Positions 56,526 to 63,499 of a DNA stretch of 64,000 nt are shown here, one piece after another (the stretch's first letter is position 1; each line of letters begins with the position of its first letter). The position numbers and the translations under genes are program-made. A model generated the notes under the pieces. The model searched no databases and was not told the DNA's origin. It saw nothing but the letters and a program-made list of their open reading frames with translations. Origin of the DNA: Escherichia coli (lineage in GTDB: Bacteria; Pseudomonadota; Gammaproteobacteria; Enterobacterales; Enterobacteriaceae); NCBI RefSeq assembly GCF_003334255.1, contig NZ_QOWU01000023.1. One strand, given 5' to 3'.

Positions 56526-57617
56526 ATGGGATTCAAATGCGGTATCGTCGGTTTGCCCAACGTCGGGAAATCTACCCTGTTCAACGCGCTGACCAAAGCC
56601 GGTATTGAAGCGGCCAACTTTCCATTCTGCACCATTGAGCCGAACACAGGCGTCGTACCAATGCCTGATCCTCGCCTGGATCAACTGGCTGAAATCGTAA
56701 AACCGCAGCGTACGCTTCCCACGACCATGGAATTTGTCGATATCGCCGGTCTGGTAAAAGGCGCATCGAAAGGCGAAGGTCTGGGTAACCAGTTCCTGAC
56801 CAACATCCGTGAAACCGAAGCGATCGGTCACGTTGTTCGCTGCTTTGAAAATGACAACATCATTCACGTTTCCGGCAAAGTTAACCCGGCTGACGATATT
56901 GAAGTTATCAACACCGAACTGGCGCTGGCAGACCTCGACACCTGCGAACGTGCGATTCATCGCGTACAGAAGAAAGCCAAAGGTGGCGATAAAGACGCGA
57001 AAGCTGAGCTGGCGGTCCTGGAAAAATGCCTGCCCCAGTTGGAAAATGCAGGTATGCTGCGCGCGCTGGATTTAAGCGCTGAAGAGAAAGCGGCTATTCG
57101 TTACCTGAGCTTCCTGACGCTGAAACCAACAATGTACATCGCCAACGTCAACGAAGACGGTTTTGAAAACAACCCATATCTTGACCAGGTGCGTGAAATC
57201 GCGGCGAAAGAAGGTTCTGTTGTGGTTCCGGTTTGTGCTGCTGTTGAAGCAGACATTGCCGAACTGGACGACGAAGAACGTGACGAGTTTATGCAGGAGC
57301 TTGGGCTGGAAGAGCCGGGCCTGAACCGTGTGATCCGTGCCGGTTATAAACTGCTGAACCTGCAAACTTACTTCACCGCTGGGGTGAAAGAAGTGCGTGC
57401 ATGGACCATTCCGGTTGGAGCAACCGCGCCGCAGGCAGCGGGCAAAATCCATACTGATTTTGAAAAAGGCTTTATCCGTGCACAAACCATCTCGTTTGAA
57501 GATTTCATCACTTACAAAGGTGAACAAGGCGCGAAAGAAGCAGGCAAAATGCGTGCAGAAGGTAAAGATTACATCGTGAAAGATGGCGATGTGATGAACT
57601 TCCTTTTCAACGTCTAA
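56526..57617 (+). CDS. ychF: Ribosome-binding ATPase YchF (Obg-family GTPase)
   Basis: 363-aa ORF starting [23 protein letters not shown].... Confidence 0.95.
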
Positions 57618-57673
57618 TTAATTTATTGTCTCATGAGGTTTCGCTAAATCTCATGAAGAGCGCAAAAGTATAT

Positions 57674-57700
57674 AAAATCCACGCAATTGCGTGGATTTTT
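57674..57700 (+). terminator. ychF rho-independent terminator
   Basis: aaaatccacgc-aatt-gcgtggattttt. Confidence 0.7.
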
Positions 57701-58385
57701 CATTTCACCGAGTCCTAATCATTCTTGTAACATCCTACACTTTTGTGCTTATTGCCTATAGTGAACCACGAGAATAATTAAAGACATAAGTGTTCAGATG
57801 ACGGATATCTCATTAGCAGTGATATAACGTAAGTTTTTGTATCACTACACATCAGCCCCCTTCACAGCTGATCAAAATTGATCACGCTCCAATATGCTGG
57901 CAAGATGAAAATGATAACCAGTAGCACAATAACAACGATAGGCCAGAAAACCCATTGACCAAAAATGAATATCGATGTTTTTTGCTTTTTCTTATTAGTA
58001 ATGCAAAAATGGCGCATATTGTTTTTGTTATGCAGATACATCAAGCGAAATTCCCATAACTAATTAGGATTATTACAAAAAATCTTCACCAAATTTTTTA
58101 ACCGCTGTTTGTTGTAATATTTTTGCCATATTTATAGTAACGAATTGGAATAAGTAACGACAACTTAGGGAATAACTCGATATAAACTCACCTTTGTAAG
58201 GGGGATGTTAAATATATATTAATTCCTGTGTTCCTGATTTTGCCCGGTAATAGAGAATTATTCTCTGAGAAGCTCATCATGATTGCACCATACAAATATC
58301 ATGATGATAAGAGGATATTATTCATTGATTTAAACAAAATGACAAAATCCATAGACCCATAGTCTGGGTACTATATAGGAGTGGT

Positions 58386-61253
58386 ATGGGCATCAAACAA
58401 CACAATGGGAATACCAAAGCAGATCGTCTCGCTGAATTAAAAATCCGTTCGCCCTCAATTCAACTGATAAAATTTGGCGCTATTGGTTTGAATGCAATTA
58501 TCTTTTCCCCCCTGCTGATAGCTGCTGATACAGGAAGTCAATATGGCACCAATATTACTATTAATGATGGTGACAGAATTACAGGAGATACCGCCGATCC
58601 ATCAGGAAACCTCTATGGTGTAATGACCCCAGCAGGAAACACGCCTGGCAATATCAACCTGGGTAATGATGTCACCGTCAATGTCAACGACGCCTCTGGA
58701 TATGCAAAAGGAATCATTATTCAGGGCAAAAACAGCTCCCTGACAGCTAACCGACTCACAGTAGATGTTGTTGGTCAAACCTCTGCCATCGGCATTAACT
58801 TAATTGGTGACTATACCCATGCTGACTTAGGCACAGGCAGCACCATTAAGAGTAACGATGACGGCATCATTATTGGGCATAGCTCAACACTAACAGCCAC
58901 TCAATTCACCATTGAAAACTCGAACGGTATAGGCCTAACCATCAATGACTATGGCACCAGTGTCGATCTTGGAAGCGGAAGTAAAATCACGACCGATGGA
59001 AGTACAGGTGTTTATATCGGTGGTCTCAACGGCAATAACGCCAATGGTGCTGCGCGTTTTACGGCTACAGACCTGACAATCGATGTTCAGGGCTACAGCG
59101 CCATGGGGATAAACGTACAGAAAAACTCTGTTGTCGATCTCGGAACAAACAGTACCATTAAAACCAATGGCGATAATGCTCACGGCCTCTGGAGCTTTGG
59201 CCAGGTTAGCGCGAATGCACTCACTGTTGATGTAACTGGAGCCGCGGCCAATGGCGTCGAAGTTCGTGGTGGTACAACCACTATCGGTGCAGATAGCCAT
59301 ATTTCTTCCGCGCAGGGCGGTGGCCTCGTCACCAGTGGTTCAGACGCGATAATCAATTTTACTGGCACGGCAGCGCAACGAAACAGCATCTTTTCCGGCG
59401 GTTCTTATGGTGCCTCGGCCCAGACGGCAACGGCTGTTGTCAACATGCAAAATACCGATATTACAGTTGATCGTAATGGCAGTCTGGCGCTGGGTTTGTG
59501 GGCTCTCAGCGGCGGTAGAATAACCGGAGACAGTTTGGCTATCACCGGCGCGGCAGGAGCCAGGGGAATTTATGCCATGACCAACAGCCAGATCGACCTC
59601 ACGAGCGATCTGGTCATTGATATGAGTACACCCGACCAGATGGCCATCGCAACGCAACATGACGATGGTTATGCCGCCAGCCGCATCAACGCCTCGGGTC
59701 GTATGCTTATCAACGGTAGCGTTCTTTCCAAAGGTGGGCTAATCAATCTGGATATGCACCCTGGGTCGGTTTGGACAGGTTCCTCCCTCAGCGATAATGT
59801 CAATGGCGGAAAACTGGACGTTGCAATGAATAACAGCGTCTGGAACGTAACAAGTAATTCTAATCTCGACACGCTGGCGCTGAGCCATTCAACTGTCGAT
59901 TTTGCCAGCCACGGGTCAACTGCCGGCACATTTGCCACATTAAACGTAGAGAACCTGAGCGGTAACAGTACCTTTATTATGCGTGCTGATGTTGTTGGCG
60001 AGGGTAATGGCGTTAATAATAAAGGGGATTTATTGAATATCAGCGGGAGTAGTGCTGGTAATCACGTATTGGCTATCCGCAACCAGGGCAGCGAGGCCAC
60101 AACGGGAAATGAAGTTCTGACAGTGGTAAAAACCACTGACGGCGCGGCCTCGTTCAGCGCGTCTTCTCAGGTTGAGTTGGGGGGATATCTGTACGATGTG
60201 CGTAAAAATGGCACTAACTGGGAGCTTTACGCTTCCGGGACAGTTCCGGAACCGACTCCTAATCCTGAACCCACACCAGCTCCCGCTCAGCCTCCCATAG
60301 TCAACCCCGATCCTACGCCTGAACCCGCTCCCACGCCTAAACCCACCACGACCGCAGATGCTGGCGGCAATTATCTCAATGTCGGTTACTTATTGAACTA
60401 TGTTGAAAACCGTACGCTGATGCAACGGATGGGTGACCTGCGAAATCAGAGTAAAGACGGTAATATCTGGTTGCGCAGTTATGGGGGAAGCCTGGACTCC
60501 TTTGCCAGTGGCAAACTGAGCGGCTTTGACATGGGTTACAGCGGTATCCAGTTTGGTGGGGATAAACGTCTCTCTGATGTAATGCCGTTGTATGTCGGTC
60601 TGTATATTGGCTCAACACATGCATCGCCGGACTATAGCGGAGGCGACGGTACCGCACGTTCAGACTACATGGGAATGTACGCCAGTTACATGGCACAAAA
60701 CGGTTTTTACAGCGATCTCGTTATAAAAGCATCGCGCCAGAAAAATAGTTTCCACGTACTGGACAGTCAGAACAACGGCGTTAACGCCAACGGCACTGCG
60801 AATGGAATGAGCATCTCCCTGGAAGCCGGGCAGAGGTTCAACCTGTCCCCTACTGGTTATGGGTTCTATATAGAGCCGCAAACCCAGCTTACATACAGCC
60901 ACCAGAATGAGATGACTATGAAGGCGAGTAATGGCCTCAATATACATCTGAATCACTACGAATCGCTGCTGGGGCGTGCCAGCATGATACTGGGGTATGA
61001 CATCACCGCAGGCAACAGCCAGCTGAATGTCTATGTGAAGACTGGCGCTATCCGCGAGTTTTCAGGGGATACCGAATATCTGTTGAACAACTCCCGGGAG
61101 AAGTACAGTTTCAAAGGTAATGGCTGGAATAACGGCGTGGGAGTCAGTGCACAGTATAACAAACAGCACACATTCTATCTCGAAGCGGATTACACGCAGG
61201 GTAACCTCTTTGATCAGAAGCAAGTCAACGGAGGATATCGCTTCAGCTTTTAA
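58386..61253 (+). CDS. ycgV: Autotransporter (type Va) putative adhesin YcgV
   Basis: 955-aa ORF with a Gly/Thr/Asn-rich repetitive passenger, Pro-rich linker (PEPTPNPEPTPAPAQPPIVNPDPTPEPAPTPKPTT) and C-terminal beta-barrel ending ...GYRFSF. Confidence 0.85.
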   Translation: MGIKQHNGNTKADRLAELKIRSPSIQLIKFGAIGLNAIIFSPLLIAADTGSQYGTNITINDGDRITGDTADPSGNLYGVMTPAGNTPGNINLGNDVTVNVNDASGYAKGIIIQGKNSSLTANRLTVDVVGQTSAIGINLIGDYTHADLGTGSTIKSNDDGIIIGHSSTLTATQFTIENSNGIGLTINDYGTSVDLGSGSKITTDGSTGVYIGGLNGNNANGAARFTATDLTIDVQGYSAMGINVQKNSVVDLGTNSTIKTNGDNAHGLWSFGQVSANALTVDVTGAAANGVEVRGGTTTIGADSHISSAQGGGLVTSGSDAIINFTGTAAQRNSIFSGGSYGASAQTATAVVNMQNTDITVDRNGSLALGLWALSGGRITGDSLAITGAAGARGIYAMTNSQIDLTSDLVIDMSTPDQMAIATQHDDGYAASRINASGRMLINGSVLSKGGLINLDMHPGSVWTGSSLSDNVNGGKLDVAMNNSVWNVTSNSNLDTLALSHSTVDFASHGSTAGTFATLNVENLSGNSTFIMRADVVGEGNGVNNKGDLLNISGSSAGNHVLAIRNQGSEATTGNEVLTVVKTTDGAASFSASSQVELGGYLYDVRKNGTNWELYASGTVPEPTPNPEPTPAPAQPPIVNPDPTPEPAPTPKPTTTADAGGNYLNVGYLLNYVENRTLMQRMGDLRNQSKDGNIWLRSYGGSLDSFASGKLSGFDMGYSGIQFGGDKRLSDVMPLYVGLYIGSTHASPDYSGGDGTARSDYMGMYASYMAQNGFYSDLVIKASRQKNSFHVLDSQNNGVNANGTANGMSISLEAGQRFNLSPTGYGFYIEPQTQLTYSHQNEMTMKASNGLNIHLNHYESLLGRASMILGYDITAGNSQLNVYVKTGAIREFSGDTEYLLNNSREKYSFKGNGWNNGVGVSAQYNKQHTFYLEADYTQGNLFDQKQVNGGYRFSF

Positions 61254-61352
61254 GTGCGGGATAGACAAGCCCTTAAACGATGCTGAAAATTGTTAGCGTG
61301 CGCCGGAATGAAATACAGATCACTCTGATGTATCAGAAATCGTTTCTGTCTT

Positions 61353-63272
61353 TCATACCCGGCGCTTAAACTGCCCTGCATCAATGCCATGTTGCTTCAT
61401 TTTCCGCCACAGCGTAGTGCGGCCGATCCCAAGTAAAGCCGACATTTCCTGAATGCGACCGCCTGTGACCTGGGCTGCGTTAATAATTGCCTCTTTTTCA
61501 ACTTCCGCAAATGACAGACTGGTGGAAAGGCGGGTGGCGCTGACATCATCTGTCGCCTGCTCGGTAAACAGATGTTCCGGCAAATCACTGACGCGAATGC
61601 GCCCGTTATCACTACTCAGAGCAAGATTCTCGATGACGCTGTAAAGTTCAAAATCGTTGCCTGGCCATGCACAAGAAACCAGGCGAGCGAGGGCATCGTC
61701 ATCAATTTTCAGCCGCGTAGAGAAGCGTTTTTCAAGACTGCGTAATTTGTTATTCACCAGCGCCGGAATGCTGCCACGCCGCATACGCAGAGGCGGGATG
61801 GTAATTTCAAATGCATGCAGCGCGTAATACAGCTGGCGACTAAAACGATTTTGTTCCACCAGCATTGCGAGGTCCGCGGTCGTTGTTGCAATCACTTTGA
61901 CATCAATTGGTATTAAACGCCGCGCATCCAGTCGCGTGATAACCCCCTGCTTGATAACCTGAAGCAAAGCAGACTGTAACTCCACCGCCAGATATTCAAT
62001 CTTTTCAAGAAACAGCGTGCCGCCGTGTGCCAGTTCCAGCCGACTCAGACGGCCATTTTCATTGTCCGTGCGATCGCCACCAATAAATTCTTCCGCCAGC
62101 GCAGCATCACCATATAACTCACAATTGACGGCGATATAAGGACCTGCAGCACGCTCGCTTTCATTATGAATTGCCTGACTTAGCAGTGCCTTGCCCACGC
62201 CCTCTTCTCCACAAAGCAGGACAGGAAAGCTACTGCGCGCCGCCTGGCGACCAAAATGAATCAAGCGGCGGGTTTGCGGATCGTCCTGTGGCATATGAGC
62301 GAAGGTATGGCTGACTTTTCCTAATTGACTGGTCATCAACTGCCGCATCTGTTCCACAGGATGGAGCAACAAAATAAAGCTGGTTCCCTGCGTTTCTATT
62401 ATCGGTTTAAGGGTTATCACCGCATCAATAAACTGATGCTGGCTTTCAAAGGTTGCTTCTACGTGTTTGAGCGGATGTGCCTGTTTTATTGCTTGTTGCA
62501 ATACGGCGGGTAACGTTAAGAGTTCAGTGATTGCCCGTCCCTGACTTGCCGTCGCGTCAAGGCGCAAGACCCGCGCCGCCTGGGCATTAATAAATTGCAA
62601 ATTACCCTGCTCGTCCCAGCTAATCACGCCATCATCCATACTTTCTAACAGGGCATTAAGTTGATTTAAATGACGGTTAGTTTCAGCGAGCAAACTGTCC
62701 GTCAGCAGTAAATTTCCGACCTCGCGGGCGATTGCCAACGTCAACGGCAAATCAGCTGCGGTAGTTTGCTCAACCGGACACGCCAGCGCTATTGTTCCCG
62801 TCAATCGGCCCTTGCTGTCAAACAACGGCGTTGCACAAAAGGCCCAGTTCCAGAGTACCTGTTTGAAATGTTGATCGGCCATCGTTTTCACGGCCTGACC
62901 AGAGATAGCCGCTAACGATAGCGCACAAGTACCAATAATTCCCTCGGCGCAATACGTGCCGTCATTGAATCCCAGTGCACTTAGCTGCTGCAAGGTTTGC
63001 GGATCGCCATTACGGCTGAGAATGCAGGCGGTTTCATCGAGGATAAACAGCGCACACTCTCGCGGTGCCATATATTCCCAGGCATCTTCCAGCGCAGCCT
63101 GCCCGAGCGTCAGCATCGCTTTCTTACGCCGATAAATAGAAGCAAATGTCACGCCCTGGGCCTGATGTGGTACGTTCCATGTCTCCCGTTTCATCAGCTT
63201 ATTGCATCGCTCCCAGGAGGTTGCAATTAAGGGAGATATGCCCCGACCATCGTTGTTAAAAGCGCCACTCAT
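61353..63272 (-). CDS. dhaR: Sigma-54-independent transcriptional activator of the dha operon, DhaR
   Basis: AAA+ core and C-terminal helix-turn-helix; start set to MSGAFNNDGRG... (639 aa); divergent from dhaK. Confidence 0.85.
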   Translation of the reverse strand: MSGAFNNDGRGISPLIATSWERCNKLMKRETWNVPHQAQGVTFASIYRRKKAMLTLGQAALEDAWEYMAPRECALFILDETACILSRNGDPQTLQQLSALGFNDGTYCAEGIIGTCALSLAAISGQAVKTMADQHFKQVLWNWAFCATPLFDSKGRLTGTIALACPVEQTTAADLPLTLAIAREVGNLLLTDSLLAETNRHLNQLNALLESMDDGVISWDEQGNLQFINAQAARVLRLDATASQGRAITELLTLPAVLQQAIKQAHPLKHVEATFESQHQFIDAVITLKPIIETQGTSFILLLHPVEQMRQLMTSQLGKVSHTFAHMPQDDPQTRRLIHFGRQAARSSFPVLLCGEEGVGKALLSQAIHNESERAAGPYIAVNCELYGDAALAEEFIGGDRTDNENGRLSRLELAHGGTLFLEKIEYLAVELQSALLQVIKQGVITRLDARRLIPIDVKVIATTTADLAMLVEQNRFSRQLYYALHAFEITIPPLRMRRGSIPALVNNKLRSLEKRFSTRLKIDDDALARLVSCAWPGNDFELYSVIENLALSSDNGRIRVSDLPEHLFTEQATDDVSATRLSTSLSFAEVEKEAIINAAQVTGGRIQEMSALLGIGRTTLWRKMKQHGIDAGQFKRRV

Positions 63273-63499
63273 ATCCCGCATCCCTTATGACAAAAGGTGT
63301 TCCGGCTCGCAATTTTAAGTATTAATACACGTAAAAGTTTCAATATGGAACATTCATTAAAGCATATGTTTCACTATGAAACATAATTTGGGCTAATTTT
63401 CTTTTCCCTTGCCTGATGCACAATGGATTCATCGGCAGTCAGTGGTCGCCGTGTCGTTGAACATCATCCATGCCCTACCGTAATTGCTGGAGCAAAATA

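Follow-up and report, generated by a model that had tools for sequence, protein, structure and literature searches.

The DNA between ychF and ycgV in Escherichia coli is made of two parts, the core 3′ untranslated region (UTR) of ychF and the AT-rich beginning of an accessory cassette that carries ycgV. The second part contains a short minus-strand open reading frame (ORF) with a very hydrophobic helix. Most likely, this ORF does not function as a gene: it appears to be a frame restricted to E. coli, without detectable protein-level constraint, and would represent a relic or a proto-gene. That H-NS binds the spacer and that it counts as a promoter island were already published, ycgV is a known cryptic adhesin gene and the ORF has been annotated automatically in places. 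What is added here is small: an allele series for the ORF and the finding that the spacer has two parts.

All positions refer to the 64-kb stretch of DNA analysed (the window), which is E. coli K-12-like DNA in the reverse complement of the MG1655 orientation; NC_000913.3 coordinates are obtained from window positions p as 1255952 + (58386 − p). The genes follow each other in the order pth, ychF, ycgV and dhaR (Table 1). With the last base of the ychF stop codon at 57617 and the ycgV ATG at 58386, the bounds of the spacer are exact. The MG1655 RefSeq record (NC_000913.3) leaves the interval between the two genes without any annotated feature. A preliminary description of this locus, made from the sequence, had pointed to a very AT-rich spacer of 768 bp at these coordinates, and the composition analysis agreed with it. 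The GC content of the spacer was 33.7%, compared to 49.7% for the whole window, and the density of TpA steps was twice that of the whole window. Only 0.09% of the 768-bp windows in the 64 kb had a GC content as low, and every one of them overlaps the spacer. The spacer therefore has the low GC content of an H-NS-silenced xenogeneic region.

Table 1 Features of the ychF–ycgV spacer and alleles of the minus-strand ORF (window positions)
Feature	Position	Strand	Remarks
ychF	56526–57617	+	
ychF–ycgV spacer	57618–58385		768 bp, 33.7% GC; lowest-GC stretch of the 64-kb window
Ancestral ychF 3′ flank	57618–57735	+	Alignable to its counterpart in E. coli L009 and Salmonella L013
First hairpin of the ychF 3′ UTR	57631–57656	+	TCATGAGGTTT / AAATCTCATGA; inverted-repeat scan; conserved in alignment
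ychF intrinsic terminator	57674–57699	+	Perfect 13+13 palindrome, then T run TTTTTCATTT
Accessory ycgV cassette (AT-rich upstream DNA and ycgV)	57736–61352	+	~3.6 kb; strain comparison
Orphan ORF	57862–58044	−	TTG start, 60 codons; ATG start at 58041, 59 codons; K-12-type deletion allele
CTGGC, last remaining direct-repeat copy	57897–57901		Junction of the 75-bp in-frame deletion
Hydrophobic helix codons	57898–57954	−	WVFWPIVVIVLLVIIFILP; Kyte-Doolittle 19-residue mean 3.06
Promoter island 1255333_301	57928–58228		Inferred conversion; assumes U00096.2 numbering, offset +777 to NC_000913.3
YbdO EMSA probe match	58257–58385	+	Primers from PMC11681634 = window 58257–58276 and 58366–58385
AGGAG Shine-Dalgarno	58377–58381	+	4 nt ahead of the ycgV ATG; read from sequence
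ycgV	58386–61253	+	
dhaR	61353–63281	−	
ORF, long allele			67 aa; ends at TAA (codon 68) inside the 75-bp segment absent from K-12
ORF, read-through 1			84 aa; TAA to CAA
ORF, read-through 2			84 aa; TAA to TCA; independent of the CAA read-through
ORF, K-12 type			59 aa; 75-bp in-frame deletion takes out the TAA
ORF, frameshifted copy			27 aa; truncated right after the lysine-rich NKKKQK; 1 of 19 sampled copies

Comparison with other strains located a boundary inside the spacer. The window, an E. coli record (L009) and a Salmonella record (L013) share the DNA downstream of ychF up to ~57735, including the first hairpin and an identical terminator palindrome. In the distant search, the Salmonella DNA just 3′ of ychF matched window positions 57620–57707 at 88%. 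With 5 segregating sites in 118 nt, the stretch from 57618 to 57735 is the least polymorphic part of the spacer. The hairpin at 57674–57699, found 3′ of the ychF stop codon and identical in L013, has the features of an intrinsic terminator, and ychF transcripts would end at this conserved structure. Because the terminator scan scored it on the minus strand as well, it could also end a minus-strand transcript. Its matches to the Rfam Leu_leader family were all sub-threshold, and an sRNA reading was dropped.

Beyond ~57735, ycgV is replaced by an integrase gene in both L009 and L013. A further record without ycgV (L010) differs from the window directly after the ychF stop codon, and homology restarts at the dhaR stop codon. 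The alignment with L009 and L013 and the divergence of L010 therefore indicate that 57618 to ~57735 is core ychF 3′ UTR and that ~57736 to 61352 is an accessory cassette. The whole spacer had been likened to H-NS-silenced adhesin promoters; its first ~118 bp are instead conserved ychF 3′ flank and terminator.

The upstream/ORF DNA of the cassette was detected in 4116 of 5426 complete E. coli genomes (4093 with a longer query), the ycgV cassette being missing from about one quarter of complete genomes. The AT-rich DNA is linked to the accessory gene, and in other strains the same site holds a 58-aa ORF or an integrase island. The best explanation is that a ycgV cassette was gained by horizontal transfer and that the AT-rich part is its front end. 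The DNA just past the ychF terminator appears to be a site of repeated insertion.

The tyrosine-integrase gene begins ~215 bp past the ychF stop codon (L009 4119–5508; L013 3497–4910), and the K-12 ycgV cassette starts at approximately the same point as that insertion. The 58-aa ORF (WP_001311636.1; L010 4310–4486) lies between ychF and dhaR where ycgV is missing; it encodes a lipoprotein-like signal sequence and a tail rich in His, Pro and Gly. Insertion sequences strike the ychF–ycgV locus repeatedly. In strain YZMc17-1 (L025 1027–1721), an IS1 within the spacer separates the ORF from ycgV, most of ycgV is deleted by IS1 in strain 14EC033 (L003 4642–5599), and the gene is truncated by an IS3-family element in strain EP91B (L024 2387–4001). 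Matches of the cassette to “plasmid” records were chromosome-sized or misassigned entries and revealed no mobile copies.

Published work places H-NS on the spacer. Promoter island 1255333_301, recorded as ycgV(-)ychF(-) with a length of 301 bp, is one of 78 islands in Table 1 of Panyukov and Ozoline 2013 (PMC3661553) and carries H-NS code A, bound in all ChIP-chip studies compared. Converted to window positions under the assumption of U00096.2 numbering, the island would cover the 5′ half of the ORF and DNA upstream of it. This spacer is itself a listed H-NS promoter island; it is AT-rich and, like most islands, adjoins an accessory gene (PMC3661553). It differs in that the island takes up only ~300 of the 768 bp and that the first ~118 bp are core ychF 3′ UTR. 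The suggestion of an H-NS-silenced adhesin promoter is therefore upheld for H-NS occupancy, which is known from published ChIP-chip (PMC3661553) and not from computation, and does not extend to those ~118 bp. A simple sigma-70 consensus scan of 57400–58600 returned 1 site versus 5.2 ± 2.3 in shuffled sequences. Since this is fewer than in shuffles, the “many promoters” property of the island depends on PlatProm, the predictor used by the authors of PMC3661553. The sole site (58345–58317, minus strand) faces the ORF. The H-NS high-affinity motif TCGATAAATT gave two matches only, each with 2 mismatches and both in the ychF 3′ flank, and was uninformative. An RpoH-holoenzyme SELEX peak has been described within the ychF–ycgV spacer (PMC5493296). 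Sigma-54 and GalR sites reported for ycgV are located inside its coding region and were discarded as irrelevant to the spacer.

The product of ycgV is an adhesin promoting adhesion and biofilm formation (PMC3796261), and the gene is cryptic in K-12 (bioRxiv 10.1101/2022.12.14.520158). Based on the literature, H-NS would coat the AT-rich cassette DNA and keep ycgV silent. YbdO has been reported to repress ycgV in an avian pathogenic strain; in EMSA, it shifted a 126-bp probe from the ycgV promoter (PMC11681634). Taking this report together with the sequence match of the probe, the LysR-type YbdO would bind the last ~130 bp before the ycgV start and add local repression beside the AGGAG. An inverted-repeat scan identified a perfect 10-nt inverted repeat (58274–58283 / 58298–58307) with a 14-nt gap inside the YbdO probe. 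A 15-nt palindrome, AGAGAATTATTCTCT (58252–58266), overlaps the probe start. The palindrome and the repeat are candidate operator sites.

Similarly to the cryptic K-12 autotransporter adhesins (ycgV, yfaL, ypjA; Roux et al. 2005, cited in PMC3796261) and to Ag43/flu, the locus has long AT-rich DNA upstream of an adhesin gene that stays silent under laboratory conditions. Among the cryptic adhesin genes, ycgV has a repressor, YbdO, binding near its start codon (PMC11681634). Unlike for Ag43/flu, there was no sign of Dam/OxyR-type phase variation at ycgV, the spacer having just two GATC sites, ~500 bp upstream of the ycgV ATG. These sites (57871–57874 and 57881–57884) are 10 bp apart and fall in the 3′-terminal part of the ORF in K-12. 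The genes with differentially methylated GATC sites listed in a preprint include ycgV (bioRxiv 10.1101/2022.12.14.520158), and the two sites of the spacer may be those concerned.

The minus-strand ORF of 60 codons and its transmembrane helix, WVFWPIVVIVLLVIIFILPAYW, were both recovered where the preliminary description had placed them. A single transmembrane helix was predicted, preceded by six Lys/Arg residues, so that the positive-inside rule is obeyed and the ORF has the form of a small membrane protein. Its length is unremarkable, because 45% of the dinucleotide shuffles of the spacer contained an ORF of at least 60 codons. The hydrophobicity of the helix (3.06) was reached in 0 of 2000 dinucleotide shuffles of the whole spacer. 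It was reached in 0.17–0.23% of shuffles made within 30–120-nt blocks, which keep the local T-richness, in 0.07–0.13% of block shuffles within an open frame of at least 40 codons, and in 0.02–0.04% of shuffles of the ORF or of its T-rich core. Among the 434 ORFs of at least 40 aa in the window, only four others exceeded a hydrophobicity of 2.6. All four were 247–559 aa long, and we take them to be membrane-protein genes; by its coordinates, dauA is one of them. The helix is thus more hydrophobic than chance would give (P about 0.001–0.002), and the signal stays moderately significant after allowing for the other non-coding DNA that would have been scanned. It looks like coding or formerly coding sequence. 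Base composition differed among the three codon positions of the ORF (p = 0.025). A weak GGGA precedes the ATG by 9 nt and the TTG by 6 nt, GGGA or GGGG being present there in all aligned strains, and an extended −10-like element, TGTAATAAT, was read from the sequence ~25 nt upstream of the ATG. Both kinds of match are cheap in AT-rich DNA.

One rival reading is plain coincidence: the minus strand of an AT-rich H-NS site, being rich in T (40% T in the core of the ORF), would simply read as Ile/Val/Leu/Phe codons. The expected length, the strand composition, the position of the 5′ part of the ORF inside the published H-NS-bound island and the neutral protein evolution described below are all consistent with it. 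It is harder to reconcile with the hydrophobicity, matched in about 0.1–0.2% only of the shuffles preserving local composition and approached by no other of the ~430 window ORFs of at least 40 aa except the four long ones, or with the difference between codon positions. We consider coincidence quite unlikely.

Database searches indicated that the ORF is confined to one species. A HMMER search of 1.84 billion representatives with the 84-aa allele returned 14 matches, corresponding to 13 variants of the ORF and one weak low-complexity match, and no homologue was found outside E. coli/Shigella. In a word-indexed search of 5.8 billion clusters, every named entry among the 93 matches was E. coli or Shigella. 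The public protein collection contains many frameshifted variants of the ORF, some perhaps being assembly errors. Pfam, NCBIfam, PHROGs and a tblastn search of phage genomes gave nothing for the ORF. A scan of one genome per species yielded two matches only, both on K-12-like E. coli contaminant contigs. The contigs come from an “Actinomycetes bacterium” MAG (L011, JAEWQO010000123.1) and from a Streptomyces assembly (L012, NZ_JARVKW010000136.1, a contig with 0.8x coverage) and carry the exact K-12-type locus; this E. coli DNA is almost certainly contamination of the records.

The annotation of the ORF is uneven. PGAP placed no annotation under it in 60 of 60 sampled RefSeq genomes; a “hypothetical protein” at the locus in one strain turned out to be a truncated ycgV. 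Some submitters annotated the ORF, as “membrane protein” in UniRef and as EDL933_1906 in one EDL933 annotation. The 67-aa allele appears as EDL933_1906 in the supplement of Neuhaus et al. 2016 (PMC4765031). We rejected this entry as evidence of expression, as it is a length-matched annotated control for structure prediction, outside the 72 footprinted ORFs (PMC4765031). Neither the ORF sequence nor the names of neighbouring genes were found in the supplements of the Sakai RIBOseq study (PMC5597208), the tables of which may list coordinates only.

The ORF resembles the small membrane proteins that have been validated in E. coli (Hemm/Storz sets; Weaver et al. 2019, bioRxiv 10.1101/511675) in its size, its single predicted transmembrane helix, its intergenic position and its basic N-terminus. 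Unlike these proteins, it is known here from sequence alone, shows neither conservation beyond the species nor purifying selection, and is outside the MG1655 annotation. It also shares a restriction to E. coli, a short length, hydrophobicity and a T-rich strand with the EHEC orphan ORFs (PMC4765031). The same traits, namely a species-restricted, short and hydrophobic product encoded on a T-rich strand, recall a further class of sequences. These are the Vakirlis-type transmembrane proto-genes, reportedly described in 2020 as arising from thymine-rich intergenic DNA.

Alignments of seven, then of eighteen to nineteen, E. coli lineages revealed several alleles of the ORF (Table 1). Compared to the long-allele strains, the window ORF carries a 75-bp in-frame deletion between two CTGGC repeats. 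The 4116 carrier genomes divide into 2121 with the long allele and ~1995 with the deletion allele. The TAA of the long allele is likely to be ancestral, because the CAA and TCA read-through codons are each one step away from it. Since this TAA belongs to the 75 bp deleted in K-12, the C-terminus varies by strain, and the read-through alleles recover the tail to which K-12 gains access by deleting the stop. Interrupting stops in relatives, which the preliminary description had counted against the ORF, were thus encountered in part: the TAA at codon 68 is present in about half of the ORF-bearing genomes and 1 of 19 copies is frameshifted, with the first 48 codons open in the other 18. This open frame is uninformative, because 18 random changes would leave it without a stop with a probability of ~0.5.

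The substitution pattern did not reveal selection on the protein. Codons 1–67 have accumulated 13 non-synonymous and 5 synonymous events over 158.3 non-synonymous and 42.7 synonymous sites, giving an omega of ~0.70. This value fits neutrality (p = 0.79) and rejects an omega of 0.1 (p = 1.3e-5), 18 events having little power to tell 0.7 from ~0.3. By contrast, a single YchF protein accession covers most strains even though 5 of 58 nt at the nearby 3′ end of ychF are segregating. Taken with the three C-terminal forms and the frameshifted copy, the ORF shows neither purifying selection nor conservation of its frame among relatives. The changes in the helix are mostly conservative (V/I, L/I). Codon 34 from the ATG (57941–57943), inside the helix, encodes Pro, Leu, His or Ser across 18 strains, following three separate non-synonymous changes. 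The first 142 nt of the ORF contain 9 segregating sites, compared to 42 in 323 nt of the flanks (Fisher p = 0.036). Because the start of the ORF is less polymorphic than its flanks, some constraint on the protein or on the DNA is possible. The lower polymorphism could equally reflect a DNA-level constraint in the H-NS-bound island, and as part of a coincidental ORF it would correspond to a role in H-NS nucleation or as a silencer. Polymorphism in the spacer peaks between the ychF flank and the ORF stop (57736–57861), with 21 segregating sites in 126 nt and length variation at a C run (~57856–57861).

A genuine gene would encode a small inner-membrane protein with its N-terminus inside and a single pass, of 67 aa ancestrally and 59 aa in K-12, divergent from ycgV and silenced by H-NS in the laboratory, with only the first ~48 residues being important. 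The non-random hydrophobicity, the 48 codons open in 18 of 19 copies, the polymorphism lower than in the flanks, the helix substitutions limited mainly to V, I and L, and the one transmembrane helix predicted for EDL933_1906 would all agree with such a gene, as would a 75-bp deletion that is in frame and common (~1995 genomes). The 13 non-synonymous to 5 synonymous events, with an omega of ~0.7, are not what it predicts, nor is a helix codon that tolerates P, L, H or S. The three C-terminal forms, the frameshift, the lack of a relative beyond E. coli and the weak Shine-Dalgarno sequence also argue against it. In addition, the ORF was left unannotated by the MG1655 curators and by PGAP and is missing from the Sakai RIBOseq supplements, where tables are perhaps limited to coordinates. 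We therefore regard a working small-membrane-protein gene as unlikely.

The small, very hydrophobic and intergenic product, with its basic N-terminus, also recalls the toxins of type I toxin-antitoxin-like modules. The ORF occurs as one copy per genome (median) and has no family members elsewhere, and its coding sequence is not conserved. No Rfam sRNA match reached the threshold, and no terminator-like site that could serve an antisense RNA was found on the plus strand within or beside the ORF. A toxin is therefore very improbable.

The preliminary description had left the choice between a real gene and a chance ORF, and neither fits cleanly: chance does not account for a helix this hydrophobic, but the ORF is limited to E. 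coli, its evolution is neutral and the K-12 copy is a deletion derivative. We infer that it has no function, since it is found only in E. coli and evolves as if unconstrained. It would have originated either as the decaying stump of a membrane-protein gene borne by the cassette or as a proto-gene from thymine-rich DNA, and a choice between these two origins would be equally inferential. The ORF faces away from ycgV, in DNA that would be bound and silenced by H-NS, and the K-12 copy has lost 75 bp in frame. A young E. coli-specific gene for a small inner-membrane protein, which came with the ycgV cassette or arose in it, is divergent from ycgV and is expressed only once H-NS silencing is lifted, seems to us distinctly unlikely.

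These results matter little beyond tidy annotation. The DNA controlling the adhesin is only the part of the spacer from ~57736 onward. Because substitutions look neutral, hydrophobicity alone should not make the ORF a gene, and K-12, in which the ORF is a deletion allele, is a poor strain for testing it. If translated, the ORF would add another small membrane protein, restricted to the species and without an assigned role. If it were indeed a young gene, the natural alleles of 59, 67 and 84 residues would provide a ready series on the birth and death of a transmembrane proto-gene.
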